Shown: positions 15,062 through 58,700 of the stretch, one piece after another
Layout: every line of letters starts with the position of its first letter
Numbering within the stretch: the first letter of the stretch is position 1
Source of the DNA: Isurus oxyrinchus
Lineage: Eukaryota
Direction of reading: 5' to 3'
DNA length: 64,000 bases
NCBI GenBank assembly: GCA_026770705.1
Contig: JANJGN010000030.1
Location: forward strand, 24,738,001-24,802,000
Position numbers and translations under genes: made by a program
Notes under the pieces: model-generated
The model's input: the letters and a program-made list of their open reading frames with translations, nothing else
What the model was told of the DNA's origin: nothing
The model's database searches: none

Positions 15062-15097
15062 CTGTCCTGATGAGTGCAAGATGAAAAGCTTTGACAG
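15062..15097 (+). ncRNA. Minimal type I hammerhead ribozyme motif (Penelope-derived)
   Basis: ctgtc-CTGATGA-gt gcaag at-GAAA-agct-TT-gacag: perfect 5-bp stem I, short stem II, palindromic AAGCTT stem III. Confidence 0.7.
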
Positions 15098-15277
15098 CAT
15101 GTCTCTTTTTTCAGCAACTCTCAAGCTCTGTACTACTGAGCGACTAGAAGGACAATTGTTAACGATGCCCAAAGGAACTGGGAACTATCGTTCCAGTATA
15201 AATCAATATAACAGCACTTCCAGCACGTGAGGGGAGAGAGGAAGGAAAGGCACTCACGTATTTAAAAAAATACTCAC

Positions 15278-15472
15278 GTATTAGCAATACTGTCGACCTC
15301 TCTTTTCAATTCTTGGATCATCTGTGTCGTGCGTTGATGCTCCCTCTGGGTACGCTCCCACTGCTGGTTAAAGGCTTCAAATTTGCCATCAAACTGGTTC
15401 AGGATCTTCAGCCTGTCTCGCTGTTGGGCGGTTTTGCTTTGATACTTGTCAATGACATTATCCAGGCTCTCC
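15278..15472 (-). CDS. Unnamed coiled-coil gene, exon (ESLDNVIDKYQSKTAQQRDRLKILNQFDGKFEAFNQQWERTQREHQRTTQMIQELKREVDSIAN)
   Basis: Acceptor tttatatgcag, donor AC|gtgagt, 195 nt, phase 2-2, heptad-like. Confidence 0.8.
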
Positions 15473-15842
15473 CTGCATATAAACACAGCCGCATGGTTTA
15501 TTATCCTAAAGGAGTGCTTTAGTGAAGAGCTGCCCCATTAGCACTAAAATCTCAGATACAGCGATTATAGTTCTCCAAACAATCTTGACTTGAAGTTTCC
15601 GCCCTTTGCCACATCCTGAAGTATCAGCACAATCCTTTATTGCTGTCAGTTTTTTAATAGGAACAAGGATGAGGCTGTTCAGCTGCTCGAACCTGCTCAA
15701 GCATTCAATGAGATCATGGCTAATCTGTATCTCAACTCCATTTACAAGCCCTTTCTCTGTATCACAACACCCTTACCTAAAATATCAACCAATCTCAGTC
15801 TTGAATGTGCCAATTATCTCCCCCAGACTTCCAGGTGTCTAC

Positions 15843-15923
15843 TCTTTGAAAAGCTCCCTGATCTCCCTCCGAGAGACTTGCTCTAATTTAACGGCATCTT
15901 TCAAGACAGCAGCCAGGCAAAAG
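15843..15923 (-). CDS. Possible extra/cassette exon (FCLAAVLKDAVKLEQVSRREIRELFK)
   Basis: 81 nt, phase 2-2 and in frame; acceptor aaatctctag, weak donor GA|gtagac. Confidence 0.4.
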
Positions 15924-16077
15924 CTAGAGATTTCAAAGGTGCTGCAGCTAACCAAGAGGATGTCAGGCAACTGGGTGGATTGTTATCATGCACAGCAAAA
16001 GACACAACAATATTAACTTCAGGTTCACTCTACGAGGTGTTAAAATAATCCTCAATTTCGAGAATTTTTTTAAAGAC

Positions 16078-16430
16078 AGGCCCTGCGCCCACACACTCCG
16101 GGCGCAGGCCCCGCGCCCACACACTCCGGGCGCAGGCTCCCCCCACACACTCCGGGCGCAGGCCCCGCGCCCACACACTCCGGGCGCAGGCTCCCCCCAC
16201 ACACTCCGGGCGCAGGCCCCGCGCCCACACACTCCGGGCGCAGGCCCCGCGCCCACACATTCCGGGCGCAGGCCCAGCGCCCCCACACTCCGGGCGCAGG
16301 CTCCCCCCACACACTCCGGGTGCAGGCCCCGCGCCCACACACTCCGGGCACAGGCCCCGCGCCCACACACTCCGGGCGCAGTCCTTCCTCGTATACTCTC
16401 AGCACAGGCCCCCCTCACATGCTTGCAACA
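16078..16430. repeat. GC/CpG-rich minisatellite (~27-29 bp unit)
   Basis: cccacacactccgggcgcaggccccgcg repeated. Confidence 0.9.
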
Positions 16431-16773
16431 CAGGCCTATTGTGCAGTCCCTCTGATTCTGGCCTCCCTTGCAGGCCTTCCAGTAGAGGCCTCTCTCGTAT
16501 ACCCCGTGAATATATTTGATATCTGAGTAATATAGAGATGACACTAGTTTCTAAGTGCGCAACAGGTTTATTTACAGTGCTTTAAAATATCTGCAATCAC
16601 AAAATATCCACCCTTATGTTTACTGCTCAGCTGAAGTAGCCGCTGTAATGTAAGTTGACTTCACTCTGAACACAGCCAGACTTAACCAATCAGGCCCAGT
16701 AAGCTTAGATCAGTTACCAGATTCACATGATCAAACGCAGAACAATTAAACCATTGAACACTACAAGGCCCAC

Positions 16774-19470: not shown

Positions 19471-19677
19471 GTGAAGCGTTTTTGGGGATTACCAGAGAAA
19501 AAGAAGCGAAAAATCGCGTGGAGTGCAGGAAGGGGTGACCGATTTGCTGCCTTCTACTTTGTGCCCGTGCCTGTAATGAACTGAAGCACTAATTCAGACA
19601 ATAGGCACTCAACCTTTACCAACATAATACATTTAGAGATAGGACATATGGTAGCTCAGATAATTCTTGCCACCTAC

Positions 19678-19749: not shown

Positions 19750-20329
19750 CTGGTGACAAAATCAGGAACAGGTTAGGCAGCCAGTCAGACGTTTAACTAA
19801 CCAGCCGGTAAGCTAACCAGCTGGCCTTTCAACCAATGAATCAGCGGGGCAAATTTATCTCCACAATCCTAGTACTTAAATGATGCAACAACAATAGAGT
19901 TGTTGCCCAAAGTGAGAAATCGCTATCAAGTCACTCGGGAACACAGAGCTTTAATGTTGCTGAAAAGAGAGACATGTTGCTGAAGCTTTTTGTCTTCCAC
20001 GTATCGGGAGAAATGCAGGAATGCCAAATTTCAAAGGGACACAACAATTTATATTAGAGGTGAAAATGGATGGCAAGTTGACCCTGATTGGCCATGGTGT
20101 TCCCATGGAGCCATCTAAATACAAGTTGCTGTTAACAGAATGTGCCAATTATTTCAGGTGAAGGCGACGCTGCACTGCCTTAACCCACCTGTAAATATAA
20201 CGTGCCCAGGTTTGCTGGAGGACCACAATTTGAAAGTATTTTATTAACTGTAAAGCATTTTGGGATGTCCTGAGGTTGTGACAGATGCTATATAAATGCA
20301 TGTTTTTTTTTTTAGCTTCACCACCGTAC

Positions 20330-21044: not shown

Positions 21045-23059
21045 TCAAACACAGAAGAATTGAACCAGTGAATGCTACACTGACCATCCAGTCATTTACA
21101 TTACCTATCCATCTACTCTCCTGCCTGGAATGATCTGTGAATCCATCATTTATTGCCCAGGGAGAAAGGAGGTCTTGTAAAGAGAAGACTAGTTGATCCA
21201 ACAAATCCATCCCTCTTTGACTGATCTTGACTGCCAGTTCCCAACTCCTCCCATATGCCGCCTCCCCTCTTTCTCTACACTGCGCTTAGTTGTCTGTTGT
21301 AACGACTTCTAATCATCATTTCTACAGCCTTTCCTTGAGATTAGATAATATGATGGCCGGCACCCACTCCTTAGAGAATTGGCACAGAGGCCAAGCTCTC
21401 TCATCTTCCAGCCTCTGTTAATTTCAGCTCATCCAGAATTCTGCTACCCATATCCCGACTCGCACCAAGTCCTGTTCACCCATTACCCCCACAATGTGCT
21501 TGATGACCTTCATTGGCTTGCAGTCCACAACACTCTGCCCTCCTCCAATTCTGGCCTCTTGCACATCCCTGATTATCACTCTTCCAGTCTTGGTCACCAT
21601 GCCTTCAGCTGCCAAGGTCCTAGGTTCTCTGGAGTTCTCTCGTTACATCTCTCTGCCTCTCTACCTCTTTGACTAAGCTTTTGGGCTCCTAATCCTCATA
21701 TCTCCTTCTGTGACTCAGTCTCAAATTTTATATGTTAGCGCTCCTGTGAAGAGACTTGGAATATTTTACTAGTTTAACGGCGCTATAGAAATACAAGTTG
21801 TTGTTGTATGGGACCTAGGCGCTCACTGCAGGCAGCAAGTACAGGGAGTCTGAAAATCCAATCCTAAAATTGTACACGAGGCTCATTTTGCCCCTCAGAT
21901 TCAGTTTAACTCATGCATTTCAGAACTAGAATGACAGAATTTTACTGCTCAGCAACAGGCCATTCGGCCCATCTGATCCATGCTGGCATTTATGCTCGAC
22001 AAGAGCTTCCTCCTAGTCTTACCCTATCAACATGTCCTTCTATTCGTTTCTCCCTCATGTGTTAATCTAGCTTCTCCTTAAACACAATCATGCAATTCGC
22101 CTCAGTTACTTCATTACTGCTACGCCAACATCTGCCCTTAATGTCACTGAACCAATAATCTAGTAGGCCCAACTAATGCCCTTGGGTCATATGTTTGAAT
22201 CCCACTAGGGCAGCTGGTGGAATTTAAATTCAATTAATAAATCTGGAATATAAGGCTAGTTTCATGGTCACCATTACTGAGACTATTACCGATTGTTGTA
22301 AAACTCCATCATCTGTTTCATTAATGCCCTTTAGGGAAGGAAATCTGCCATCCTTACCTGGTCTGGCCTACGTATGACTCCAGACCCACAGCAATGTGGT
22401 TGACTCTTAACTGCCCTTTGAAATGGCTGAGCAAGTCACTCAGTTCAAGGGCAATTAGGGATGGGCAACAAATGCTGTCCTTACCAGTGACTCCCACATC
22501 CCATGAAAGAATAAGGAAAAAGGAATGTGGTAGCAAGTTCCACATTCTTTGGGTAAAAAAAGTTTCTCCTAAATTCCCTATTGAATGTATTAGTGAGTAC
22601 ATTAAATTTTTTTGTCCCCAACTTTGAACTCCTCCATAAAGGGAAGCCCTTTCTCTACATCTACCCTATCAAACCCTCACACAATCTTTAAAAACTTGTA
22701 TCAGGTCACCCCTCAGCCTTCCCTTTCCCGGGGAAAGGTTCAATCTTTCCTGATTCTTGTAACCTCTCAGTCCTTATAAGTCTTGAATGCTACATTGAAC
22801 ACTACACTGCCTATCCTTGTATGCACAATGTAGAGAAAGAGGGGAGGGGGCATATGGGAGGAGTTGGGAACTGGCAGTTAAGATCAAAGAGGGATGGATT
22901 TGTTGGATCAACTAGTCTTCTCTTTACAAGATCTCCTTTCTCCCTAGCCAATAAATGATGGATTCACAGATCATTCCAGGCAGGAAAGTAGATGGATAGG
23001 TAATGTAAATGACTGGATGGTCAGCGTAGCATTCAATGGTTCAATTCTTCTGTGTTTGA
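21045..23059. repeat. ~235-bp inverted repeat pair (21045-21279 / 22829-23059)
   Basis: Arms are near-exact reverse complements (e.g. agagaagactagttgatccaacaaatccatccctctttga). Confidence 0.9.
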
Positions 23060-24354: not shown

Positions 24355-24680
24355 ACGTCACTGTGAGGCTAGTAGCTACAGGACTCACTGTGGCCTCACA
24401 GGCACAGGCCCTATGGTGAGGCCTACAACTACAGGACTCCATGTGAGGCCCTCACAGGTACAGGCCCCACCGTGAGGCCTACAACTACAGGATTCCATGT
24501 GAGGCCCTCACAGGTACAGGCCCCACCGTGAGGCCTACAACTACAGGACTCCATGTGAGGCCCTCACAGGTACAGGCCCCACCGTGAGGCCTACAACTAC
24601 AGGACTCCATGTGAGGCCCTCACAGGTACAGGCCCCACCGTGAAGCCTACAACTACAGGACTCCCTGTGAGGCCTTCACA
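24355..24680. repeat. ~59-bp tandem repeat
   Basis: gtgaggcctacaactacaggactccatgtgaggccctcacaggtacaggccccacc repeated about 5 times. Confidence 0.9.
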
Positions 24681-24787
24681 GCCTGAATCTGGAGCTTGTA
24701 CCTTGCGCTATATTTTCCAGTTTTCATCCTTTGCTGGCACCATTCTTGGGCGTTCTTTGTTTCTGTTTGGTTAAAAAAAAAACCTAC

Positions 24788-26967: not shown

Positions 26968-26987
26968 TAGACCACTAGGTGGCAGTA
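26968..26987 (+). promoter_or_regulatory. CTCF-like motif
   Basis: tagaccactaggtggcagta matches the CCACYAGRKGGCRS core. Confidence 0.5.
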
Positions 26988-28199
26988 TACTCCCATTGGC
27001 GAACCCACCCAGAAGCTGGAAAGGTAGAACAGACGTATTAAGTGAATAGAATTCAAATTTGAGTGAAAGGTTTTACATAAATGAAAAAGCTGATTCTCCC
27101 CCGATTGGTCAAAAAGATCGAGCGAGTCAAAAAGACTGAGATGTTTTTACTGTTATAAAGTCAGACATTTAAAGGCAAATTGTTGGAAGTTAAACTGGTG
27201 GCAGCACAAAATTGCATGAATCGATATTGAAAGATGGACTCACTCAGAGAATGCAGGTATTGACAATACGTCATGCGTGTGCATTATAGGAATCATTTCT
27301 GAGGCTCGAGTGAAGCTACCTTGGCCTGGATTTTGGGTTCTAAGGGCAGCTTACTCCCAATTAGTGAGAAATAGGCTTTGCACAAAGGAGGTGATATTAG
27401 GACAGGTGATGGGAAACTTGGCCAATGAGCTAGGCTTTAAGGAGGATGGACCAAATGGCCTCCTTTTTTGCTGTAACGACTCTATGTGGAGAGGTTAAGG
27501 AGGGGAATCCCAGAGCTTACAGCTTAAATGACTGAAGCCACAGGCAGCAAGGGTGGAACGAAAGAAATGGTGGACCATAAGTTGCCAGTCACTGAGACAG
27601 AAAATAGAGACAGGTTCAACAGACATCCAAGTACGTTATGTAGAAAGAGGGGGGGGTGGAGAGATACAGAAAGGAGCTGAGAACCAGTGTTTGAAATCAG
27701 TCAAAGAAAGATGGATCCAATGGCCAAGGTTGGAGAAACGAAGGCGGAAACGTTGACAAATTTCTAGCCGAATTTCCCTGCACCTGAGTTTGGGGAGACG
27801 ATGTTGAAATGTCACGGGACTAGTAATCCAGAGGCCCGGACTAGTGCTGTGGGGACATGGGTTCAAATCCCTCCACAACATCTGGTGGAATTTACATTCA
27901 GTTAATAAATCTTGAATTGAAAGCCAGTCTCAGTGATGGGGTGACCCCATGACACGTAGACCATCTGTTGTTAAAAACCCACCTGGTTCACTAATGCCCT
28001 TTAGGGAAGGAAATCTGCCATCCTTACCTGGTTTGGACTGCACGTGACTCCAGACCCCCACACCAATGTGGATGGCGCTTAACTGCTCTCTGAAATGTCT
28101 TACCAAGCCACTAGGTCAAGGGTAATTAGGGATGCTGGTCTTGCCAGCAATGTCCACATCCCATGAAAGAATAGAGAAAAAAAGAATCACATCACTGTT

Positions 28200-28520
28200 T
28201 GCTAGTACAACACTTGAGTATTGCTGGAAAGGGAGACATGTAGAAGCTTTTCGTCTTGCACTCATCAGGGCCAATATCAATATAAGGGGGAAACAACAAT
28301 TTATACTGTATGTGAAGAGTGCTGATTAGTTGGCAAGTGGACTCTGATTGGAAGAGGTGTTGCCATGGAGAATTCATGATGGTGATGGTGACTGACAGTT
28401 AACTGCCCAGCATTGTTTGGAAGTTAAACCAGTATAAATTGTTGTTTTCCCCTTTTTTTAAGTGCCCTGATGAGTGCAAGACGAAAAGCTTTGACATGTC
28501 TCTTTTTTCAGCAACACTCA
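28200..28520. mobile_element. Palindromic element with two outward-facing hammerhead motifs (minus 28241-28270; plus 28463-28496)
   Basis: Both arms carry CTGATGA gtgcaagac GAAA agct T(C/T) with intact G-C stem II closing pair. Confidence 0.75.
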
Positions 28521-28836
28521 AAAAGAATCACGGTGGGTGGGGACCTTTTGTCACATTTGCCCTGCAGAAATGTGCAAAATGGGTGGAAATTTGGTGTAAG
28601 GTGATCTCTGCCTGATGGTGCGATCCAATTTGCGGAAATCAATTTGGGCATCAGTAACCCTGCTCTGTAGCGTAAGTCGAAATTTGTTCTGCAGCAGGAA
28701 CCTAACCTGGACATGACTGCTGTGTGCAAAAGGGAGAGCAGTCTTTACCCTGCACAAACATCCCTTAGCCTAACGACTGCTTAGCATCATTGAACTTTAG
28801 AAGCCATCAAAGTGAGTCGATAAAGCCACTTAATAC

Positions 28837-29182: not shown

Positions 29183-29313
29183 CAACGGCCCAGGAGAATT
29201 CCTTTCTCACAGGAAGAGAAACAACACAGAGAACAATGGGTCATGATAGCAGAAGCAAATCTCATAACAGTGGAAAGAACATAGAGATTGAAGTTCCATA
29301 ACAGCCGAGAGAA

Positions 29314-29595
29314 TGCAGGAAGTGACGCATCACAATAGCATAAAGAACACAGGAAGTGATGCGTCACAATAGCATAAAGAACACAGGAAGTGATGCATCA
29401 CAATAGCCTAAAGAACACAGGAAGTGATGCGTCACAATAGCATAAAGAACACAGGAAGTGATGCATCACAATAGCATAAAGAACACAGGAAGTGATGTGT
29501 CACAATAGCGTAAAGAACACAGGAAGTGATGCATCACAATAGCGTAAAGAACACAGGAAGTGACGCGTCACAATAGTGTAAAGAACACAGGAAAT
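29314..29595. repeat. 34-bp VNTR, 8 full copies, each with caggaagtgaYgcRtcac
   Basis: Units start at 29317, 29351, 29385, 29419, 29453, 29487, 29521, 29555. Confidence 0.95.
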
Positions 29596-29669
29596 GAGGT
29601 GTCTAGGGAGGCCAGACATCTGTTTTTTTTTAGTGGACAGTCCAGCTTTAACCTGAACTGCCACTATCC

Positions 29670-30420
29670 AACAAAAGGCTAGTATGCAGGAACAGCAGGC
29701 AATTAGGAAAGCTAATAGAATGTCATCATTTATTATGAGGGAAATTGATTACGAGAGTACGGAAGTTATGCTCCAGTTGTACAGGGCACTGGTGAGACCA
29801 CATCTGGAGTACTGTGTACAGTCCTGGTCTCCTTATTTAAAGAGAGATGTAAATGCATTAGAGGCAGTTCAGAGATTCACTAGACTAATACCAGGAATGG
29901 GAGGGTTTTTTTCATTCATTCATTCATGGGATGTGGTCCTTGCTAGCCAGGCCAGCGTTTATTGTCTTTGAGGAAAGGCTGGACAGGTTAGGTTTGTATC
30001 CGCTGGAATTTAGAAGATTAAGAGGCAACTTAATTGAAATCTTTAAGATCCTGAAGGGCCTTGACAGGGTGAATGTGGAGAGGATGTTTCCTCTTGTGGG
30101 AGTATCTAGAACTAGGAGTCACTGTTTAAAATTGAGGGGTCGGTCATTTAAGGCAGAGATGAGGAGAATTTTTTTCTCTCGGAGGGTTATGAATCTTTGG
30201 AACTGTCTTCCTCGAAAGGTGGTGGAAGCAGAGACTTTGAATATTTTTAAGGCAGAGCTAGATAGATTCTTGATTAACAAGGGGGTGAAAGGTTATCGGG
30301 GATAGGCAGGAATGTGGGGTTGAGGTTATAATCAGATCAGCCATGATTGTATTGAATGGCGGAGCAGGCTCAAGGGGTGGAGCCTGCTCCTAATTCATAT
30401 GTCCATATGTCCATATGTCC
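29670..30420 (+). mobile_element. CR1-type LINE 3' fragment
   Basis: AIRKANRM..LQLYRALVRPHLEYCVQSWSP..; RRLRGNLIEIFKILKG. Confidence 0.9.
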
Positions 30421-30738: not shown

Positions 30739-31245
30739 TGTAATATTCAATTGTTTGGTGTTTGATTATTTGTGCCTGTTAACTGCTCTGTGTGTTGTTA
30801 GTCAAGCCTGTGGGTGTAGTTAGTGAAGCAGAAACTAAACTGAAAGCGAGGAGCTACAAGCACAGGAGGGCAGACATTTAAAGAACACCATAAATAAAGC
30901 TCCTGTTTAGGCAAGAAACTGGAGTGTCATCTCTGCATATCTCCAAGGCATAAGATGTAACAACTGTTGACGAAATGGAGAATAATTTACATTTACTGGT
31001 TTTAGCATTTTTTCTTTCATTGCTGGGACATCCACCCATGCTACTGGATCGATGGATTTCAGATTTCAGCACCTATTCTCTCGCTAGGGGATGGATAGTC
31101 CACATGTAGTAGCAACTAGAGGGTGATACTCGCACATTGTCTTGGAGCAGAAGGGCAGTGAATATTCAAACGGCTCTCACATGATACATCCACATTTGAT
31201 ACGGCTGGAAGTGGTCTCGAAAAATTCTTGGGCCAAAAAAGGGAG
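30739..31245 (+). mobile_element. Decayed Ty3/Gypsy 5' LTR plus start of gag
   Basis: LTR with aataaa ending ..gtaaca (~30962), PBS-like actgttgacga, then FLSLLGHPPMLLDRWISDFSTYSLARG..RVILAHCLGAEGQ*IFKRL. Confidence 0.6.
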
Positions 31246-31257
31246 TTCAGAAAGTTG

Positions 31258-31310
31258 TTAAGTGCCTAATCTGAAGATGAGGTGCTGTTCCTCCAGTTTG
31301 CGTTGGTAAC
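31258..31310 (-). mobile_element. Penelope-like element fragment (end of GIY-YIG ORF)
   Basis: Peptide QRKLEEQHLIFRLGT typical of vertebrate PLE C-termini. Confidence 0.65.
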
Positions 31311-35936: not shown

Positions 35937-36480
35937 CTACAACAACAACAACAACTTACATTGATACAGCACCTTTAAAGTAGTAAAACACCCCAAGGCG
36001 ATTATCAAACAAAATTTGTCACAGGGCCACGAAGGAAAATGTTGGGACAAGTGGCAAAGCTTAGACAAAACTGTTGGTTTTAAGGATCCCCTCAAAGAAG
36101 GAGAGAGAGGCAGAGTGTTAGGGAAATGAAAGAAGGATTTGCATTTATACAGCGCCTTTCATGACTGCAGGACATCCCAAATTCCTTTCCAGCCAATGAA
36201 GTACTTTTGAAGTGTAGTGAACTGTAGTTATGTAGGAAATGCAGCAGATAATTTGTGCACAGCAAACTCCCACAAACAGCAGCGTGGTCAAGAGCAGATA
36301 ATCTGCTTCAGTGATATTGATTGAGGGATAAGTATTGGTCAGAGCATCAAAGGAATCCACTGCTTCCCTTCATGGGATCTTTTACATTCACCGGAAAGAG
36401 TAGATGTGAACACTTCATTTGAGCCCCTCTCATTTTGAGCATAAACATATGCACTTGAGGATTGCTGAAAAAAGAGACAT

Positions 36481-36518
36481 GCTATCAAAGCTTTTCATCT
36501 TGCACTCATCAGGACAGC
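36481..36518 (-). ncRNA. Minimal type I hammerhead ribozyme motif, sense to the TRPM4 intron
   Basis: gctgtc-CTGATGA-gtgcaagat-GAAA-agct-TT-gatagc, 6-bp stem I with one G-U pair. Confidence 0.7.
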
Positions 36519-38404
36519 TTGCAAGATATTACCAAATAGTAACGGGGAAAACAACAATTTATACAGCTTGAGAAGAGAATGCTGATCTGTTGGCAAGTGG
36601 ACTTTGATTAGTGGAGGCGTTGCTGTGGAAAACATAGCATGGAACAGTTAACTGTCCAGCTTTGCTCAAATTCAAACTGAGCAATTCGACTCTGATTGGT
36701 AAAGGGATTGCCCTAAGGAATGACCAAGGGAATGGCTGTTCCCTAAGCTTTTGTTATGCAATTCTCAGCAAAAGAATTCTGGGACCGGGGGCCTGTGCAG
36801 CTGACGGCATGGGCTGCCTATGGTGTAGCCAATGGAGTTTGATGCGCAAGAGGTGATGTATCAGGAATCTGTCGGAAAGAGAAGAATAGCTCAATCTCAG
36901 GCAGCCAAGGCAGAACTATATCGTTGTAGCCACTTTAATCCCACCTATCTCACCCCAAACCTCCCTGATCCCCCAACCGAGTCTTTTATTGAACTGGAAA
37001 ATGTAGTTAAAACTCAAGGCGATGTTAAAATGAGTGAGAGAAAGGATAAGGGAAATTAAGAGGTAGTGAGTTTGAAAAGGATATTTGGAGAGTACCTCAG
37101 TGCAGGGAGTGCTGCATTGTAGGATGTTCTGTCTTTCAGATGAGATATTAAACCCAGGCCCCTTCTGCCCTCTCAGGTGGACATGCCAAAGATTCCAAGA
37201 CATAATTCGAAGATCAGGGGAATTCTCCCGGGTGTCTTGGCCAATATTTATCCCTCAACCAACACCACTAAGAACAGGTTATCTGATCATTATCACGTTT
37301 ATTGTCTGTGGGAGCTTGCTGTGCACAAATTGGCTGCCACATTTCCTAGATTATAACAGTGACTGTACTTCATTGTCTGTGAGGCACCTTGAGACATCTA
37401 GAGTTTGTGAAGGACACTATATCAATGTCTTTGTCTTTTCTTTTATGAGTGGATAAGGAGAGATGACAAATAAAGACGTTAGCAGCCATCTCATTGCTAA
37501 CAACCTGTACAAAAATAGTACGAGCAGGAATGCAACATAGAGGCATTAAATCTTTCTACAATCAGAATTTTTATTTTAATAGTCTCCATAAAGCCCAAAA
37601 TCATTCAAGAAAAAAAAAGACTTGCATTTATATCGTACCGATCACAACGGGCCAATCACAAGGGCCACGGATTACAATAGATAGGCGCTTGATGGCCAGC
37701 ATGGACACAATAGGCCAAAGGGCCTGTTTCTGTGCTGTATAACTCTATGACTCTATGACAACCATCGGAGGGTTATATAAATGCAAGCCCCAAAACGCTT
37801 CACAGTCAATGAAGTACTTTTTAAAGTGTGGACACTTGTAACGTAGAAAACATGGCAGCTACTTTACTCACAGCAAAGTCCCACAAACAACAACGTGACA
37901 ATGACCAGATAGTGTTTTTGCGATGTTGAGTGAGGGATAACTGTTGGCCTCTGAGGAGAATTCCACTGCACTTCTTCAAAATAGTGTCATGGGATATTTT
38001 ACTCCCATCTGAGGGGGCAGACAGGGCCTCAGTTTAACATCTCGTCTGAAAGACCGCACCTCCGACAGCGCAGCATTCCCTCAGTACTGCACTAGAGCGT
38101 CAGTCTTCATTGTTGTGCCCAAATCCTGGGGCAGCACTTGAACCCACAACTTTCTGACTCGGAGGTGAGGCTTTGTTATTGCTCCCTTATCTGAATCTCA
38201 CACTTTATGGGATGTAAGAAATAACTTGAAGTTTAATTCTTAACTTTAGCCTCCAACCTGTCCCCATCCCAACCTTTCTCATTTTCCCTTCTTTCTTTTG
38301 TTTATGGGACTGAAAATGTGAATACAGTCCCCAAATTCTTCTTTTGATAAAACACCATCACGCCATTGCCTACCCATTCTTCCCCAGGGCTTCAAACTCT
38401 AGAA

Positions 38405-41749: not shown

Positions 41750-42460
41750 TTTTATTCATTCATGGGATGTGGGCATCGCTGGCTAGGCCAACATTTATTG
41801 CCCATCCCTAATTGCCCTTGAGGTGGTGGTGAGCTGCCTTCTTGAACCACTGTAGTCCATGTGGTGTAGGTACACCCATAGTGCTGCTAGGGAGTGAGTT
41901 CCAGGATTTTGACCCAGCGACAGTGAAGGAATGGCGATATATTTCCAAGTTAAGATGGTGAGTGGCTTGGAGGGGAACTTCCAGGTGGTGGTGTTCCCAT
42001 CTATCTGCTGCCCTTGTCCTTCTAGATAGTAGTGGTTGGGGGTTTGGAAGGTGCTGTTGAAGGAGCCTTGGTGAATTCCTGCAGTGCATCTTGTAGATGG
42101 TACACTCTGCTGCTACTGTGCATTGGTGTTGGAGGGAGTGAATGTTTGTGGATGTGGTGCCAATCAAGCGGGCTGTTTTGTCCTGGATCTTGTCAAGCTT
42201 CTTGAGTGTTGTGGGAGCTGCACTCATCCAAGCAAGTGGGGAGTATTCCATCACACTCCTGACTTGTGCCTTGTAGATTGGGGACAGGCTTTGGGGAGTT
42301 AGGAGGTGGGTTACTCGTTGCACGATTCCCACCCTCTGACCTGCTCTTGTAGCCACAGTATTTATATGGCTGGTCCAGTTCAGTTTCTGGTCAATGGTAA
42401 TCCCCAGGATGTTGATAGTGGGGGATTCAGTGATGGTAATGCCATTGAACATCAAGTGGT
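41750..42460 (-). mobile_element. HER1-like (CR1/L2 group) LINE 3' fragment
   Basis: FNGITITESPTINILGITIDQKLNWTSHI..YKAQVRSVMEYSPLAW; other copies at ~46395-47070, 57915-58210, 60475-61050, 62870-63090, 12040-12320. Confidence 0.85.
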
Positions 42461-42941
42461 GATGGTTACATTCTCTCTTGTTGGGGAAATATAATATAAA
42501 TGGATAACCAGATAGAGCAGGAAAATGGGATTGGCCCTGTTGGCATTTGTTAGATGAGCCACACGGCCTCCTTCTGTGCTGTAAATCCTGTTACTCTTTA
42601 CCTGGTTCCTTGACTATGATAGAACTAGGAATTGAACTTGAAACTGATGAAAAGAGAGACTTGTTGGGGAAGCTTCTCATCTTGCACTCAGAATTCCAAA
42701 TTTCAAACAATCACAACAACTTACAGTACGGGTAGTATAAATTGCTGTGAGCATTTGAAATTCGGTATTCTTGCATTTGTTCTGATGTGTGTGAGACAAG
42801 AAGCTTCAGCAACATGTTTATCTTCTCGGCCACATTCAAGAAGTTGAGACTTCCTAATCTGTTTGCTCATATTTCTTTCTTTGCGTTTTTTTGATGTCTT
42901 GGACCTCCCTGTAATGAGAACATCAGTATCTGCACCCTCAC

Positions 42942-44937: not shown

Positions 44938-46049
44938 ATTTCCCCAGATTGGTTTTGAATTTACTCCCACTTTGAGGACAGGCCGTGGCTGGAGAAGGTG
45001 AAACAGCTTGTTCCTGACCTACATTCCCATTAATATGTGTCTCCTTTGCTCAATACCAGGTCCACTATTCATTTGATCCATCCTATTTCGTTCAATAATA
45101 TTAAAGGGGAACTTTAGTGATGAGGAAATTGGTGCAGCGCTAGGTGCTTTCTGTCAGCCTCCCACCTGTGTAAAAATAATATGCATTATTCCACCCCTGT
45201 TCCTTAATACGATTATCATCCTGAAATTTGAGGCCCTTCGCTCCAATGGTCATTGACACAGGTTGAGATTCACTCCCTGACAGGCCCAAAGCCGACCCTT
45301 ACCCGCCAGTGATGGTGAGTCCTGAGTTGCTATCCTGTCACGGTCGAGACTGGTCAACAAATCGTTGAATGGTTACAGCACAGAGGGAGGCCATTTGTCC
45401 CATCATGTCCGTGCTGGCTCTCTGCGAGAAAGGGCAACTCCCCTAGCCCCACTCCCCTGCCCTTTCCACCCAGTCCTGCATTTTTCTTTCCCTCCTCTAC
45501 AGGTGCTTCATCCAAATCCCGTGTGAAAGCCAGGATTGAGTCTGCCTCCACCACACTCTCAGGCCGCGGTTCCTAACCGCTCGCTGCGTTTATAAAAAAA
45601 AAGTTTTTCCTCATGTCGCCTTTGGTTCTTTAGCCAATCACCTTAAGTCGGTGTCCTCTGGTTCTCAATCCTTCTGCCAATAGGAACAGCTTCTCCCTAT
45701 CTACTCTGTCCAGACCCCTCACGATTTTGAATATTTCTATTAAACCTCCTCCTGCTTTCACTTGACAGAATCTACTTTTCATTGGGGTGGGAGTCAGCGG
45801 TGAGGGTGGGGGGAGTCAGTGATGAGGAGCTGTGTGTGATTTGAAAACTCCTCGAGGGGCTCTTGACTTCAACCTGGGCAACTAGCTCAGCGCAGGCCGG
45901 GGATCGCACCCAAACCATTCCTAACCCATTCTGCCCCAGTATAGTGCCAGATGGCGCACTTTACACAAAGGGATTTGCTGCTCCCAACATTACCCTTCCT
46001 GGCTCAAGTTCCTGCTGCTCATGTGGTTTGCTGCTGGGACATGTCTTAC

Positions 46050-46231
46050 TGAAGAGTGTGCCCTTCACGGTCGGGACCTTCCGGATGTTTCTTTTGATGA
46101 AGATGTGGATGTGGCTCAGGATGATGAAGGGTGGAGCGAGGGCCGGCCGTTTGTGATATTCCACAATTAGGTTGTACCGCTGGAACTTCCAGTAGATGTC
46201 ACTCTTTTCCTGAACTTTATTGAAGGTGTAA
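46050..46231 (-). CDS. TRPM4: TRPM4-like exon, TRP helix ([40 protein letters not shown]..)
   Basis: 182 nt, phase 2-1, canonical splice sites; TRP box WKFQR. Confidence 0.95.
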
Positions 46232-48786
46232 CTGGGAAAGACAAGAAGAAATGGGATACATCAAACCTACAGAACAGAAACAGGCCATTCGGTCCAATTG
46301 CTCCATGCTGGTAGTTTAATACTCTTCTCATCTGTCTTCTTCTAACCCTATCATTATATTCTTACATTCCTTTCTATTAGATTCACCTCAACTACTCCAC
46401 TATCAACATCCCGGGAGTTACCATTGACCAGAAACCGAACTGGACTAGCCATATAAATCCTGTGGCAACAAGAGCAGGTCAGAGTAATTCTGTGGTGAGT
46501 AACTCACCTCCTGACTCCCCAAAGACTGTCCACAATCTCCAAGGCACAAGTCAGGAGGGTGATGGAACACTCCCCACTTGCCTGGATGAGTGCAGCTCCC
46601 ACAACACTCAAGAAGCTTGACACCATCCAGGACAAAACAGCCCCACTTGATTGGGACCCCATCCACCACCTTCAACATTCACTCCCTCCACCACAGACGC
46701 ACAGTAGCAGCAGTGTGTGTGCCATCTTCAAGATGCACTGCAGCAACTTACCAAGGCTCCTTTGACAGCACCTTCCAAACCTATGACCTCTACCATCTAG
46801 AAGGACAAGGGCAGCAGATGCATGGGGACACTGTGACCTGCAAGATCCCCTCAAGGCCACAAACCATCCTAACTTTGAACTATATCGCCGTTCCTTCACT
46901 GGCGCTTGGTCAAAACCCTGGAACTCCCTCCCTACCAGTGCTGAATCACAGAATCGGCCCATCATGTCTGCACTGTGGGCGTGCCAACGCCACCTTCTTA
47001 AGGGCAGTTAGGGATGGGCAACAAATGCTGGTCTTGCCAGCGATGCCCACATCCTGTGAAAGAATATAAAAATACAGCCCCTCTCGCCTGTTCAACTACT
47101 TAACGACATCATGGCTGATCTGTGACCAAACTCCTCACACTTGCCTTTGCCTCATATCACTTTGGTTAACAAAAATCTATCAATCTCAGGTTTAAAACTA
47201 ACAACTGATCCAGAAACTGAGTGCTGTTTGATGAAGAGAGTTCCAAGTTTCTAGCACTCCTTGCATGAAGTAGTAGTTCTGAATTTCATTCCTGAAAGGT
47301 CTGCCTCGAATTTTTAGGCAATATCCTCGAGCCTGACCCTCCCCAATCAGCAGAAATAGTTTCTGTCAAACTAACCTATCAGTTCCGCTTAATATTTTGA
47401 AAACATTGATCGAATCCCTCTGAAATCTTCAAATTCCAGGGAATTCCAGTGGTGTAACCGCTTCTCGCAATTTAACCCTTGAAGTCCAGGAATCATTCCG
47501 ACATCATTTTCAACACCTCTAGCAGATGTCCTCTTAACTCCCCACGTTCTAGGAGAAAGAGCCCCTCAGTTTCTCATTGCTGAGCTGCAGCACTCAGTCC
47601 CAGATACCAACTTTAGTGAATCCAGTATACTCATGACCAAGGGAGGTGATGGCTTAGTGGTATTATCACTGGACTAATGTTCCAAAGGTGCAGGGTAATT
47701 CTTTGGGGGAACCTGGGTTCAAATCCCACTGTGGTAGATAGTGAAACTTGAATTCAATTAAAAAATCTGGAATTAAAAGTCTGGTGATGAGTGTGAAACC
47801 AGTGCCCAAACTAATCTGGCTCACTAGTGTGATGGAGAGGGAAAGAAGCCATATTCCTGAAGGAGGACAAGGGGGAGGATGTCACAACATGAGAAGGAAT
47901 GGGACTGGGGGCAGATTAATTCCTGGAGTCTAGCACCCAAGGACCTACAGTGTGTCCCCACCTTCATGTGGGGGAGATTTAGGTCAATGAGAGAAATTGT
48001 AGTTGGGGGAAGGGAAATCTGCCACCCGCAGGCCTACAAGTGACTCTTAAAATGCCCTTTGAACAAGGGCAATAAATATGCCCACATCTCATGAACAAGC
48101 CAGTTGGTCCAAGCTGCATTCTAGTCACTGGCCCAATATATGATCCGGTGGGTTAGTTTGTCTCTTATTCCAAGAGCAGGATTGTGTTTTGGTTCTTGGG
48201 CTGTGGTCGACACTAATACAACCACCTCGTGTTACCATGAACATCGAAGTAAACTTGAGCACCAACCATATGGTGTGAGCCTGTGAATGTGTGTAAACAC
48301 TGGTAAGGATGGTAGCTTCTCTTCCCTGAAGGACATGAGTGAGCAGCTGAGTTTTTAACAACAAACTGACAGTTTCATGGTCACTTTTACTGACGCATGT
48401 CTTTTTCTAATGTCTAGATTTTTTAAACTGGAATCCAAATTCTCAAACTGCCATGGTTGGATTTAAACTTGCCTGGATTATTAGTCCAGTAACGTAACCG
48501 TTATACTTCCCTGCTTCCTAATGGGGAACAGCATTGGGTATCGGTGCATGTGATTGGCAAGGCAGCAATCTCCTGAAGCACTAATTGCTGCATAGGAATA
48601 GGAGGAGGCCATTCAGTCCCTTGAGCTTGTTCTGCCCGCCACTTAATTAGATCATGGCCGATCTTATCCTTAACTCCATCTTACCAGCCCTAGTCCCGCC
48701 ACCCTTGCCCGATTAAAAGGAAACTTCCTGAGCTGACGCCAGCTACCTCGGCCCAGATGGAGTGTCCGTCTTGGCTAAACTGTTAC

Positions 48787-50421: not shown

Positions 50422-50559
50422 CTGGAAAAATCATGAAAATAAATTAAAACTGATGGATGAGAGATGCACACGGAACATGCACACTCAGGACCCTGACTCG
50501 TCACAGGCAATATCAAACTCTGAGTATGCCAGGCAGTGAGGGGTAATGGAGCTCATCAC

Positions 50560-52175
50560 TCACACTACACCCCTCCCCCGCCAAATAACACTCTCATATA
50601 CCCCACACCCGCCCCGGTAACACTCTCATATACCCCACAGCCCCAATGTAACACTCTCATATATCACACCCCTCACTGTAACACTCTGATATATCCCACA
50701 CCCCTCACTGTAACACTGATATATCCCGCACCCCTTACTGAAACACTCTCTGATATTTCCCACACCCCTCACTGTAACACTCCCTGATGTACCCCACACC
50801 CCTCACTGTAACACTCTGACATATCCCACACCCCTCACTGTAACACACTGATATATCCCGCACCCCTTACTGAAACACTCTGATATTTCCCACACCACTC
50901 ACTGTAACACTCTGACATATCCCACACCCCTCACTGTAACACTCTCTGATATTTCCCACACCTCTCACTGTAACACTTTGATATATCCCACACCCCTCAC
51001 TGTAACACTCTCTGATATTTCCCACACCTCTCACTGTAACACTCTCTGATATACCCCAGACGCCTCACTGTAACACTCTGACATATCCCACACCCCTCAC
51101 TGTAACACTCTGATATACCCCACACCCCTCACTGTAACACTCTGATATACCCCACACCCCCCACTGTAACACTCTCTGATATATCCCACACTCCTCACTG
51201 CAACACTCTAATATTCCCCACACCCCTCACTGTAACATTCTGATATACCCCACACCCCTCACTGTAACACTCTGATATATCCCACACGCCTCACTGTGAC
51301 ACTCTGATATATCCTGCACCCCTCACTGTAACACTCTGATATACCCCACACCCCTCTCTGTAACACTCTGATATATCCCGCACCCCTCACTGTAACACTC
51401 TGATATATCCCACACCCCTCACTGTAACACTGATATACCCCACTCCCCTCACTGTAACACTCTGATATACCCCACACCCCTCACTGTAACACTGATATAC
51501 CCCACACCCCTCACTGTAACACTGATATACCCCACACCCCTCACTGTAACACTCTGATATACCCCACACCGCTCACTGTAACACTCTGATATACCCCACT
51601 CCCCTCACTGTAACACTCTGATATACCCCACACCTCTCACTGTAACACTGATATACCCCACACCCCTCACTGTACACTGATATACCCCACACCCCTCACT
51701 GTAACTCTCTGATATACCCCACATCCTTCACTGTAACACTCTGATATATAACTCACCCCCCCACTGTAACAGTCTGAAATATAACTCACACCCCCCACTG
51801 TAACACTCCCATATATCTCACACCCCACTGTAACACTCTGATATACCCTACACCCCTCACTGTAACACTCTGATATATCCCACACCCCTCCCTGTAACAC
51901 GGTGATATTCCACACCCCTCACTGTTACACTCTTGATATACCCAACAATCCTCACTGTAACACTCCCATATACCCCACACCCCTCACTGTAACACTCCCA
52001 TATACCCCACACCACTCACTGTAACACTCCCATATACCCCACACCACTCACTGTAACACTGATATACCCCACACCCCTCACTGTAACACTCTCTGATATA
52101 ACTCACACCCCTCCCGATTCAGTTTGATATAACTCACACCCCTCCCGATTCAGTTTGATATAACTCCCACCCCTC
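50560..52175. repeat. ~29-33 bp minisatellite filling most of a TRPM4 intron
   Basis: cacccctcactgtaacactctgatatacccca repeated roughly 50 times. Confidence 0.95.
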
Positions 52176-52189
52176 ATTCTCTCACTCAC

Positions 52190-53615: not shown

Positions 53616-53734
53616 CTGCAGACGACCCCAGCGATGAACATAAGGATGGCCAGAATGTCGCACTTGTTCCACATATCCTGATAATACAACTTCACCTTCT
53701 TCTTCATGGAGATATTCATGCTGACAAAGAAGGT
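53616..53734 (-). CDS. TRPM4: TRPM4-like exon, S2-S3 linker and S3 (TFFVSMNISMKKKVKLYYQDMWNKCDILAILMFIAGVVC)
   Basis: 119 nt, phase 0-2; WNxCD Ca2+-site motif. Confidence 0.95.
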
Positions 53735-54159
53735 CTACGGAGAGACAAGAGGAGCCGGCGTAACACAGATTTCCAGAATTACACAGCCAGTATCACAGGG
53801 GAGAATGGTAGCAGACTGACTATGTTACTGGATCAGTGACCTGAGTTAAATCCCAGTGCCAATTAATTTTTTAAAAAATGTGGAATTTAAAAGCTAGTCT
53901 CATTGATACTGATCCTGAATGGCTTGTTGTTAAAAACCCAACTGCTTCCTCAGGGAAGGGTCTGCCATTGGTACTCACTCTGGCCTACTTGTAAGTCCAG
54001 ACCCACAGCAACATGGTCGACTCTTAACTGTCCTCTGAATTGGCCTGGCAAGCCGGTCAGTTGTATCAAACCACTAGAGGAAAGTAAAAAAAAGCACTAT
54101 GGGTGTACCAACAGCACATGGACTGCAGCCATTCAAAATGGCGACTCACTATCTCTCAA

Positions 54160-54820
54160 GGCATCTGGAATGCTCTCCTTCATTGGCAGAGGTATAGAAT
54201 ATAAAAGTAAGGATATAATGTTGGAATTGTATAAAACACTGGTGAGGCCACAACTGGAGTATTGTCTGCAGTTCTGGTCACCACATTACAGGATGTAATA
54301 GCTCTGGAGAGAGTGCAGAGGAGGTTTACAAGAATGTTGCCAGGGTTAGATAAGTGTAGCTACGAGGAAAGATTGGATAGGTTGGGGTTATTTTCCTTAG
54401 AACAAAGAAGGCTGAGAGGTGACTTGATTGAGGTGTACAGAATTATGAGAGGAATAGATAGAGTGGACAGGATAAAATTGTTTCCCTTGGTGGAGAATTC
54501 TAGAACCAGGGGACATAGATTCAAGATAAGTGGCAGAAGGTGTAGGGGGGACATGAGGAAGAACTTTTTTAACGCAGAGGGTAGTGGGTGTCTGGAATTT
54601 GCTGCCCAAGTTGGTGGTAGAGGCAGAAACTCTAAACTCTTTTTAAAAGTACCTGGATCTGCACCTTAAGTGCTGTAAGCTGCAGGGCTATGGGCCGGGT
54701 GCAGGAAGGTGGGATTAGAAAGGGCACCTGGGTGTCCTCGGGCTGGCATGGACAAGATGGGTCGAATGGCCTCCTTCTGTGCTGTAACTTTTCTATGGTT
54801 CTATGGTTCTATGGTTCTAG
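54160..54820 (+). mobile_element. CR1-type LINE 3' fragment with (ttctatgg)n tail
   Basis: GIEYKSKDIMLELYKTLVRPQLEYCLQFWSP..RRLRGDLIEVY; further fragments at ~34150-34515, 57050-57590, 59500-59880. Confidence 0.9.
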
Positions 54821-55952
54821 GGCTGGGCAATAAACACCGGCCTGGCCAGCGAAGCCCACGACCCGTGAACACATTACTAAAAAAGGAGCCATGATCCTTG
54901 GCGGGTTCTTTACACAGGAGTTTGCAGATGTAGGACTGCGTGTCCCGCCCCTTTTACAGTTTTAACAAGAACATCTAGATATAAGGAACGAAATTGTTGG
55001 ATATATTATCATCTCTGGGTTTTGCATGTCAGTGATTAAAAGTTCGAGATTATCTGAACAGTGGTTATACAGTGACCCCTGTTGGAACGTTGCAGATGTG
55101 CAGGCAGGGTTGTGACGCTCCCTCCCGTGGCCTGAATTTACAGCCTGGCAGGCTGGTGCGTTCGGCAGGCCTGGGGAGAGGCCGGGAAACGGACTTCCGG
55201 CCACGATTGGCACCCCCCCTCCCCAACTCTACACCCCACCCCACCCACCCCCCCCCACTGCGATTTCACTCTGGCTGGCCGATTAACGACCAGCCCAGCG
55301 GTCGCCTGAAAATTTAGCCAAATGGAAACGCTGTCCACAGAAATTTATTTTTATTTTATTGCATCGCGGGAATCGTGATGAAAAATGTAAAGGCCGCCTG
55401 GCCGATTCTCCTGTCCGCCAACCATAATGTTGGTCGGGCTCCGTGAGATGACAGGCAATTGCGCCATTAATGGGCTGAGTTGCCCTCTTCATTGCCAGCG
55501 GGCGCGCTTCTGACTTTAACGTGTTCCTGTCGACCGAAATATCGCAGGGACACGGGGTGATGTCGGGACGCTCGCCCGTTGTCATCTCGCACGATTTCAA
55601 TCCCGACCAGCGTACGTTTCAGCCCCTTGTTACGGAATACCCCCACATTTGTAAGATGTACCCCGTGCCCTCTTGAGGCAGTTATTTCCAACATTCTCAC
55701 CCGTGACTCAGAACGACCATGGGTTCAAGTCACACTCCAGAGGCTTGAACCCCGTAATCCAGTGCTGAGGGAGTGCTGCCCTGTCGGCGGTGCTGTCTTT
55801 GAGGTGAGACTTTAAACCAAGGTTTTGTCTGCCTTCTCAGGCTGTAAAAGATCCCTTGGCACTATGTTGAAGTTCTCCTTCTTGACCTGGTCAATATTTA
55901 TCCCTTCAAATACATGGTACAGAGCTTGAATGTTGCTAAAAAGAGAGACCTG

Positions 55953-55988
55953 TTGTCGAAGCTTTTCATCTTGCACTCATCAGGACCA
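55953..55988 (-). ncRNA. Minimal type I hammerhead ribozyme motif, sense to the TRPM4 intron
   Basis: tggtc-CTGATGA-gtgcaagat-GAAA-agct-TC-gacaa; UUC cleavage triplet intact; left arm of palindromic element ~55915-56280. Confidence 0.7.
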
Positions 55989-58344
55989 ATGCAAGAATGC
56001 CAAATTTCGAAGGAACAAAACAATTTATACTACAGGAGAAAAGGGTGCTGATTGGTTGGCAAGTTGACTCTAACTGGTTGAGGCGTTGCCATGGAGAAAG
56101 CAACAGGAAACTCTGGGCTCCCCAAGCTCCCGGTAATTCAAAAAAGGCACAAGGTTTAAACCTATTCCTTTTGTTTGCAGAGAACGGCTCCATGTGGATG
56201 AATGTATGTCGCTTCTAGTAAGTGTAAGTGAGGCCGATGTGCTCAAGATGAAAAGCATTGGCAATCTGCGTCTCACGTGAAGAGCCTCCGGATGTTAGAT
56301 TCAGCTAAAGAAAAGAGTTATATAAATGCAGATTGTAGTTGGAAAAAAATACAGCATTTCCTTTCAAAGCAGGTCTGGCTTTGGTAAACATTTGGTTATT
56401 CTGAGTTCTGATTTTGGGTCTTTGGCTGAAAAGTGACCCCTGCTTTTCTTTTCACAGATGCCAATGGAGTTGCTCCGTAACTTACGCAGTTGTTCTGATT
56501 AAATTTTTGTGGGAGCTTGCTGTGCACAAGTCGGCAGCCACGTATCCTCCTTTACAACAGTGACTACGCTTGAAAAAGGAAAGCATTTCATCAGCTGTAA
56601 AGCACTTTGTAATGCCCTGAGGTAATGTAAGTCCTTTCCCAATTAGTTTGGTATTTTCTTTGCTCGTGACCTGGGCCAGCAGATGACAATATTACACTCT
56701 GCTCAATGATGGAGTTCCTACACGAGAGATACTGGTCACTCGTATCCATAATCCATCAAGCTCACCCTTCCTCCTCACCCAGTCTTGCCTTCACACCTCT
56801 CTACTGTGTCTTGATGGTAAAATTCCCTTCCATGACCTCGCACCCCCCCCCCCACCCACCCACCTCACCTCCCTATCTCTGGAACCTCCTCCAAGACCTT
56901 CTAAGCTCTTCCAATTCCAGCCTGTTGCCTATTGCTGATTTTCATCTGTCCACCATTGGCAGCCAGTTCTGCAGCTACCGAGAAGCTTACTTCTGGAATC
57001 CCCTCACTAAACCTCTCCAATTCTCTCCTCCTTTAATGCCTTCTTTGAACAAGCTTAGTGTACTGTGTGCTGTTCTGGTCGCCATACTATAAAATGGAAA
57101 TAGAGGCACAGGAGAGGGTGCAGAGAGGATTTACAGAGATGATCCCAGAAATGTGTGTGTTTACATATCAGGAAAGGGTTGACAGGCTGGGTCTCTTTGC
57201 TCTTGAAAAGAAAAAGGCTGAGGGGTGACCTAATCGAGGTCTGAAAGGTTTTGATAGAGTGGATACAGAGAGAATGTTTCCTCTTGTGGGGAAGAGCAGA
57301 ACTAGAGGCCGTCAATATAAAATAGTCAGCAAGAAACCCAATAGGGGATTGAGGAGAAACCTCTTCACCCAGAGAGTGGTGAGAATGTGGAACTGACTAC
57401 CACAGGGAGTGGTGGAAGCGAAAAGTATAGATGCATTTAAGGAGGGGGTAGACAAGCCTATGAGGGAGAAGGGAATAAAGGGTTACGCTGACAGATTTAG
57501 ATGAGGAAAGATGGGAGCAGGTTTGAATTGAGCAAAAATGCCAGCATGGTCTGGCTGGGCTGGATGACCTCTATCTGTGCTGTATCTCCTCAACAAGCTC
57601 TGATATCTTGCTTAGGTGGCTCCGTGTCAATACTTGGCAGATAACTGACCCTGTGAAGTGGCTTGGGATGTATTACTGTGTTAAAGGTGCTATATAAATG
57701 CACGTTAATGCTGTCCCTAACTATCCAAGACGCCAAACCGTGATGGAAATCAGTAATGGAGAACACAAGTCTCTCCAATCCCTAGCAGCCAATCCAATTC
57801 CTAACAGGGGAGAGACCCAGACCACAAAACTGACCCTAACTTGGGAGTAGTCACTAGTGCACTGGCCATCTCTTTCTCTCTCTTTCTCCTTTAAGACTTG
57901 TGTGGGAGGCAGAGTCCTTTGACAGCGCCTTCCAAACATGCAACCTTTACTACCTAGAAAGACCAGGGCAGCAAATGCATGGGAACACCACCCACCTGCA
58001 AGTTCCGCTCCAAGCCACTCACCATCCTGACTTGGAAATATATCTCCGTTCCTTCACTGTCACTGGGTCAAAATCCTGGAACTCCCTCCCTAACAGCACT
58101 GTGGGTGTACCCACACCACATGGACCGCAGCGGCTCAAGAAGGCAGCTCACCACCACCTTCTCAAGGGCAATAAGGCCTTGCCAGTGACACTCACATCTC
58201 ATGAAAGAATACAATGGAGAATTTCCAATTAGGTCGGGGGCACATTATTGGTGGGACATTACCTCAGCAGCTGTACCTGAAACAGTAAGGGTTCCTTTTC
58301 CCAATGTTAACATTCCCCACCTTGATAAGAACAGAATTTGCAAT

Positions 58345-58700
58345 TACTTGGTAGTACAGAGCTTGAATATCACTGAAAAGAGAGACATGTTGCTGAAGCT
58401 TTTCATCTTGCACTCATCAGGACAAATGCAAGAATGCCAAATTTCAAATAATCAAATTTATACTGCAGGAGATGAGTGTGCTGATTGGTTGTCAAGTCAG
58501 CTCTGACTGGCCAAGGCGATGCCAGGGAGAAAGAAATGGGGAACTATAGGCTTCCCAGGCTCCCGGGTAATTCAAAAAAGGAGTCAGGCTTGAACGTATT
58601 CCTTTGAAATTTGGCATTCTTGCATTTGTCCTGATGAATGCAAGATGAAAAGCTTCAGCAACACAACTCCCTTTTCAGCCATATCCAAGAGTTCACAAAG
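58345..58700. mobile_element. Palindromic element with two outward-facing hammerhead motifs (minus 58389-58426; plus 58625-58661)
   Basis: ~95-bp inverted arms, each with ttgtc-CTGATGA-N9-GAAA-agct-TC-agcaa. Confidence 0.75.

Follow-up and report, generated by a model that had tools for sequence, protein, structure and literature searches.

The 64,000-nt window analysed here (contig JANJGN010000030.1 of the Isurus oxyrinchus assembly GCA_026770705.1, positions 24,738,001–24,802,000) contains dispersed repeats bearing a minimal hammerhead ribozyme. These repeats are very probably 5′-truncated 3′ ends of a protein-coding Penelope-like element (PLE) that carries the hammerhead; they likely stem from reverse transcription that was aborted, and since then have probably been inert passengers of introns. 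The seven recognisable copies listed in a first-pass annotation of this DNA were all recovered with a 25-nt core pattern, CTGATGA-(G/A)TGCAAGAY-GAAA-AGCT-TH (C3 at +15067, +28467, +58631, −28268, −36512, −55983 and −58420), and no match was seen in any of 100 shuffled sequences. A profile search added decayed copies at the four places already suspected, ~20007(−), 42690(−), 42783(+) and 56235(+), the last being a weak match (E 0.0016) that was missing from the 10 matches of a second model. Scanning the window with Rfam gave 12 weak, unrelated matches and none to a hammerhead model. The 11 arms fell into seven insertions, four of them two-armed with 3′ ends outward, and all seven lay in introns of either TRPM4a or a testis-specific serine kinase substrate-like (TSKS-like) gene.

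The exact 26-nt core occurred 2202 times in the genome searched (4.98 Gb) and its reversed control never. Because just 3 of the 131 copies picked by other motifs kept this exact core, and given the density of matches in the flanks of the window (6 over 400 kb, 2 over 101 kb), the family was estimated at roughly 10^5 copies. Copies had a common 3′ end 50–90 nt beyond the core and stopped at scattered points upstream. Long copies aligned over ~2 kb, into the motifs of reverse transcriptase (RT), in the order RT, GIY-YIG endonuclease, a ~230-nt 3′ untranslated region (UTR) with CCAAT and TATA motifs, hammerhead and an end of 50–60 nt. At 24 of 30 loci selected by the endonuclease, the hammerhead lay on the same strand 110–310 nt downstream of the endonuclease end, and at one more it lay at +572. 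A 279-aa piece was 45–50% identical (50% over 96%) to unnamed proteins in which RVT_1 scored above the cut-off and GIY-YIG weakly or below it, and a CCHH arrangement with two cysteines between GIY and YIG was read from the translations (VVYEF-QCQC-DARYVG ... KQH ... GQH). The pseudo-long terminal repeat (pLTR) preceding the open reading frame (ORF) was the same as that following its end. It ran through the whole hammerhead, to 60 nt or more upstream of the predicted cut, in 52 of 114 copies with an ORF start, and its motifs lay at −217, −119 and −97 (CCAAT) and −71 (TATAAA) relative to the cut. A Penelope origin of the hammerheads, first suggested from the window, was confirmed by this ORF for RT and GIY-YIG lying collinear upstream in long copies.

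Among 98 copies selected by the tail, lengths were continuous from 41 to >1000 nt (median 236 nt); 39 reached the ORF and 36 had an inverted partner at the 5′ junction. The tail itself was present in 16 of 30 copies selected by the core. The repeats had been annotated as a non-autonomous family, and a retrozyme-like or palindromic mini-element spreading as a 220–370 bp unit would agree with the 59 of 98 copies that were short and without ORF, with the two-armed form of four of the seven window insertions (210–360 bp), and with PLE-derived non-autonomous retrozymes of vertebrates, including one chondrichthyan, described in the available part of one report (10.64898/2026.07.22.740005). However, no common 5′ junction or length class was found, arm lengths varied by site, an equal layout occurred with 1-kb ORF-containing arms at locus L066, and no head-to-tail tandem units were seen among the window copies. 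The elements had also been called non-coding, which fails for two of them, since the 55983 and 58420 arms begin with C-terminal ORF codons; the 55983 arm retains at its 5′ end (56230–56141) the final 30 codons of the GIY-YIG reading frame. With lengths running on into RT- and endonuclease-containing copies, a non-autonomous unit is largely refuted, and we hold it to be most improbable.

The linker between RT and endonuclease was without a zinc-finger-like motif at four loci (L063, L067, P0121 and P0123), and such a motif is given as a trait of Neptune and Nematis in the portion of PMC8557442 consulted. Judged by the absence of this finger, the family probably belongs to the Penelope/Poseidon type; ‘Neptune’, the label given to the hammerhead family at first, was rejected after the linker had been read. 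The ORF end at 31258, to which the hammerheads had been linked, proved to be part of a ~60-bp scrap (31244–31306, minus strand) from the end of the endonuclease in another PLE family, of Neptune type and without similarity to the hammerhead family. That Neptune-type family (L084, L092) has the linker zinc finger and carries in its pLTR a motif resembling a hammerhead, with CUGUUGA as the core. Exact ancestral 34-mers of the hammerhead family numbered only 76 genome-wide, and for 30 of these the upstream sequences were no more than 87% alike; there was thus no sign of a young burst, and we infer that the family is old and has ceased to be active. Intact motifs seemed richer on small contigs (C28–C33 held 18 of the 76).

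Three of the two-armed insertions folded back strongly (z −13.9 for 28196–28521, −8.3, and −14.4 for 58348–58689). The first consisted of a long minus-strand arm with pLTR and tail (28196–28432; C3 28268, stem I broken), sense to the TSKS-like gene in intron 1, and a short inverted plus-strand arm with no tail (28430–28521; C3 28467) matching its partner at 82 of 92 nt. The tail was on one side, and a 12-bp target-site duplication (plus-strand copies at 28179–28190 and 28520–28531) enclosed the insertion at 28179–28531. At 58348–58689, a long minus-strand arm starting from the last ~10 ORF codons (58348–58598; C3 58420, stem I disrupted at its first pair), sense in a TRPM4a intron and buried in the fold-back, faced a short inverted plus-strand arm (58603–58689; C3 58631; 79 of 87 nt matching) whose end was ~75 nt from a TRPM4a splice donor. 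A decayed head-to-head insertion had a left arm with a partly deleted core (42634–42728, minus) and a right arm with a mutated core (42733–42840, plus). The fourth pair, at 55917–56274, showed no excess folding (z 0.59). It joined a minus-strand stub with ORF end, 3′ UTR/pLTR and tail (55917–56230; C3 55983; predicted cut after 55958 with a UUC triplet and one stem I mismatch), sense in a TRPM4a intron, to a probable, heavily decayed inverted plus-strand arm without fold-back (56236–56274; 30 of 37 nt matching). Thus pairing as inverted arms, part of the first description, held for four of the seven insertions and strong fold-back for three, but not for this pair.

The fold-back comes from a second, inverted 3′ end at the 5′ junction, present in about one insertion in three; this is the inverted 5′ copy known from PLE insertions. 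Partial tandems, an inverted 5′ copy and an optional tail make up the layout of endonuclease-positive (EN+) PLEs, as described in the accessible text of PMC8557442 and PMC3846280. A head-to-head PLE insertion was also seen at L066:3110–5550, where 1-kb ORF-containing arms meet within 3 nt. In the proposed course of insertion, the enzyme of the element would nick the target, copy the RNA from its tail and mostly halt after a few hundred bases.

The remaining insertions were single stubs: one with a tail at 15045–15145 (plus; C3 15067; predicted cut after 15092, with a UUU triplet and G-U at 10.1–11.1), antisense in a TSKS-like intron; one with its core destroyed at 19929–20110 (minus), sense in a TSKS-like intron; and one at 36453–36739 (minus; C3 36512; predicted cut after 36487, with UUU, G-U at 10.1–11.1 and a 5-bp stem I), sense in a TRPM4a intron. 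A pLTR fragment of the hammerhead-bearing family at 12880–12982 (plus) ended before the hammerhead. Copies in and near the window were mostly of one subfamily with U-G in the second stem I pair (6 of 11 window arms and 4 of 6 flank matches).

The family majority had a full core, with CUGANGA, GAAA and UH as majority letters in 96 aligned copies plus the seven window copies, a G10.1-C11.1 pair, a stem II of 1–2 bp, the palindrome AAGCUU (AAGCTT in DNA) as stem III, a UUC cut triplet and a stem I of 4–5 bp. This agreed with the original call of a minimal type I hammerhead with palindromic stem III. Helix II began directly after A9, and neither an extra base between positions 9 and 10.1 nor a long helix II was found. 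In many copies G10.1-C11.1 had become G-U by CpG decay, a process also proposed from the window and seen as ~40% change at each CpG letter. The fifth stem I pair covaried (G-U 101, U-A 84, C-G 39) across 310 cores, out of 350, that were ungapped and had upstream context; it was paired in 257 of the 310, versus 133 ± 8 in shuffles. This covariation represents three or four subfamilies, that is, a few events in master elements and not 310 independent ones. The other four stem I pairs showed no variation beyond decay, and the 11 window copies by themselves (75.7% paired) showed no excess over shuffles (58/500). Covariation of stem I across copies, on which the first-pass annotation had made its reading depend, was thus present at the fifth pair, between subfamilies, but not at the other four. 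Because stem I covaries between subfamilies, the alignment shows apparent selection on a master ribozyme.

Bases before stem I could pair with loop II, with at least 5 bp in 44 of 71 copies versus 3 of 71 at a control position. The helix counts as a single inherited trait, shows no covariation, and in the monomer also forms a competing hairpin. A 6–7 bp complement was present in all subfamilies (window 55997–55991 / 55975–55969, minus strand) and may be either a pseudoknot of the active fold or a hairpin covering the core.

The hammerheads of inserted copies decay neutrally, like their flanks: substitutions had hit 60 of 941 letters in the core and 466 of 5749 in the flanks (p 0.07), and rates matched by base were alike. 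G12 was lost by CpG decay in 43 of 92 copies. Among 131 copies chosen without bias, the core letters were kept in 34, and the core, a 4-bp stem I, the 10.1–11.1 pair and the palindrome were all kept in 8. Every window copy carried lesions and none kept the ancestral structure. The ribozyme would serve the master element, probably by cutting its tandem transcripts slowly and with help from a dimer partner or a protein.

The minus strand of the window carries the 3′ coding exons of TRPM4a (35094–63258; the gene extends ~48 kb past the window), identified by an exon at 46024–46227 that was 100% identical to TRPM4a of two lamniform sharks. The TSKS-like gene (7339–29012, minus; eight of nine mapped coding exons in the window) runs beyond position 1. 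The orientation first assigned to three copies was therefore correct, with 36512, 55983 and 58420 intronic and sense to TRPM4a.

Sense intronic copies might dimerise through AAGCUU and cut the pre-mRNA of TRPM4a or of the TSKS-like gene, either as a burden or as a domesticated regulator. In favour, 6 of the 11 window arms were sense to a host gene; 36512 and 55983 kept all core letters, most of stem I and the 7-bp upstream–loop II helix; 55983 and 58420 lay 2.4 kb apart in one intron and were common to a related shark; and domesticated intronic hammerheads of amniotes are described in the consulted part of PMC6155905. On the other hand, G-U replaced G10.1-C11.1 in all three TRPM4a sense copies, together with a UUU cut triplet in 36512, a stem I mismatch in 55983 and a broken first pair in 58420. 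The fold-back was predicted to bury two cores, with a mean pairing to the inverted arm of 0.999 for 58420 and 0.96 for 28268, as had been anticipated; the corresponding value of 0.67 for 55983 came from a fold no better than shuffles. The palindrome duplex was predicted at only −4.3 kcal/mol, and 36512 lay 19 kb from the next copy. Even designed dimers of minimal hammerhead ribozymes (min-HHRs) cleave weakly (PMC4209133), and the Anolis PLE hammerhead cleaves only with the protein of the element (PMC11167929), as far as the available text of both papers goes. Depletion of sense copies was absent in the window (6 sense and 5 antisense arms). Purifying selection on the core, which marks domesticated hammerheads of the RECK type, was not seen, given the family-wide core decay and the lesions of the window copies.

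The intron with two sense copies was also spliced in related sharks. DNA contigs of a related shark spanned both junctions of the 55983 insertion and those of the 58420/58631 insertion, and a splice joint 53734–58764 was found in RNA-type contigs of two of four runs, from two studies, with short sides of 29 and 120 letters. Because cores decay, the sense copies are lesioned and the intron is spliced in relatives, the co-transcriptional cleavage of TRPM4 introns proposed in the first-pass annotation was not supported. Cleavage of host introns by inserted copies is unlikely, and as an account of these repeats it seems to us very improbable. In runs X2 and X4, RNA-type contigs with a high word depth (2252 at one joint) carried the hammerhead end of the subfamily of window 58373–58440; they may represent collapsed repeats, the UTR of a host gene or a derivative that is expressed.

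Several observations weigh against reading the repeats as inert PLE stubs. Six degenerate pieces of the shark ORF, scanned directly with Pfam, gave no match to RT or GIY-YIG, and the putative identity of both domains rests on homologs and visible motifs. A target-site duplication, sought at the seven window insertions, was clear in only one, the copies being old. Insertions were ~10 times denser in the window than in the flanks (7 in 64 kb versus 5 in 400 kb, p 4e-4), an excess that we ascribe, without proof, to the selection of the window and to richer small chromosomes. The core was slightly better kept than the flanks (6.4% versus 8.1% changed). The spliced contigs came from related species, of which only organism A was shown to have the insertions, and they showed splicing, not the absence of a cut fraction; contigs of RNA type do not reveal cut ends or levels. 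Even so, the truncated coding PLE accounts best for these repeats.

The predicted cut was located 3 or 6 nt before the likely AUG of the ORF in all main subfamilies (e.g. window 55958–55952, minus strand, L160, L187 and L188). Among 391 copies, an ATG began at base 4 after the cut in 142 and at base 7 in 117, with 57 elsewhere and 75 having none; three subfamilies differed from the fourth by exactly 3 nt in this interval. The ATG opened a frame aligning with a homolog from its residue 15 onward, in frame in 19 of 37 ATG-bearing copies and shifted in the rest, and from this we infer the position of the start codon. Another ATG, within the CUGAUGA core, lay 26 or 29 nt upstream of the likely start and therefore out of the ORF frame. 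Two other candidates were rejected: an in-frame start ~160 nt upstream of the cut, where the frame was not kept, and an apparent splice donor behind the tail, which sits inside the ORF reading frame.

Most templates were uncut: the sequence continued across the cut site in 79 of 98 copies of one set and in 52 of 114 of the other. Among copies stopping nearby, 5 of 16 and 7 of 52 started at −3 to +4 of the cut, versus 11% and 5.7% in simulations (p 0.025 and 0.027); these counts exclude 3 and 5 internal deletions and 5 more copies starting at the anchor. The 5′ ends were thus enriched ~2–3-fold at the cut (e.g. L159, L170, L288, L324, L254 and L143), an excess that is borderline over the downstream background (11 seen versus 6–7 expected, counted by hand), with windows set post hoc and several junctions blurred by letters common to the inverted arm. 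Stalling of the RT at stem I would put 5′ ends at almost the same position. The hammerhead might be a translation and template switch of the master element and the excess of genomic 5′ ends a fossil of in vivo cleavage, an idea that we consider doubtful. Cutting would strip off the cap together with the decoy AUG, and the product would be a unit-length 5′-OH RNA starting at the ORF, much as ribozymes drive translation in fungal viruses; such RNAs would sometimes be reverse transcribed, leaving the 2–3-fold excess. If true, this would be a genomic record of PLE hammerhead cleavage in vivo, which is not shown in the PLE papers compared. Two features of the family offer handles on the in vivo role of PLE hammerheads: a predicted cut beside the start codon, and old copies numerous enough for statistics on whether cut RNAs served as templates.

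Other repeats were also present in the window. Intronic minisatellite arrays lay at 50555–51918, 9242–10022, 16049–16450, 29228–29635, 24394–24737 and 1507–2213, with units of ~32, 28, 27, 34, 56 and 43/85 nt, respectively. A 176-nt inverted repeat (21045–21220 / 22884–23059; 97% complementary, 1663 nt apart) was located in a TSKS-like intron. From motifs we take many fragments (within 41811–42590, 46381–47066, 60514–61090, 29657–30420 and 53891–54666) to be LINE-type RT, some of them presumably forming inverted pairs within TRPM4a introns.

The shark family was compared with four kinds of known hammerhead-bearing systems. Minimal type I hammerheads of metazoan PLEs are reportedly the subject of Lunse et al. 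2017. A literature search, with subscription papers and Repbase/Dfam outside it, gave no account of a shark Penelope hammerhead family or of a link to the start codon, and no shark was named in the two supplementary files of PMC4209133 that were searched.

The closest system is the EN+ PLEs of the Penelope/Poseidon type (D. virilis Penelope, Anolis PAc and Adineta Pen2a), compared here through the available portions of PMC8557442, PMC11167929 and PMC3846280. Common to both are a single ORF of RT and C-terminal GIY-YIG with CCHH, a pLTR that holds promoter motifs and the hammerhead, partial tandems, strong 5′ truncation, an inverted 5′ copy and a one-sided tail overlapping the ORF start; a target-site duplication, a further trait of these elements, was seen at one of the seven window insertions. 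The start codon of Anolis PAc precedes the cut by 26 nt, whereas the likely shark start follows it by 3 or 6 nt, and, unlike the EN+ PLEs listed, the shark family showed no active young copy. Mutants of the Anolis hammerhead were unaffected in insertion in vitro, and no reads ended at the cut, according to the same part of PMC11167929.

Like the metazoan min-HHRs in the sections of PMC4209133 consulted (Cervera and de la Pena 2014), the shark hammerheads have a full core, a 4–5 bp stem I, a palindromic 15.2–16.2 and G10.1-C11.1 and are dispersed in thousands; unlike them, they have a stem II of 1–2 bp, no bulge after A9 and possibly a 6–7 bp pseudoknot helix. Pairs on opposite strands 100–700 bp apart, and singles from truncated PLEs, are reported in those sections. 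Non-LTR retrozymes, in the accessible parts of PMC7229834 and 10.64898/2026.07.22.740005, likewise have a PLE-related type I hammerhead in short dispersed repeats, but are non-coding head-to-tail tandems, whereas the shark stubs come from a coding element, are variable, and stand alone or in head-to-head pairs. Type I hammerheads of fungal RNA viruses (e.g. PtFV1), which promote cap-independent translation according to the available text of PMC13725137, resemble the shark family in a short helix II and a cut near the start codon (7 nt, versus 3 or 6 nt here). The viral ribozymes are monomeric and were tested in vivo, whereas the shark one is a retrotransposon min-HHR known from sequence, with a predicted start. 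Intronic hammerhead look-alikes in sharks are mostly transposon debris, and to the known class of PLE stubs with minimal hammerheads this work adds a shark family of ~10^5 copies.

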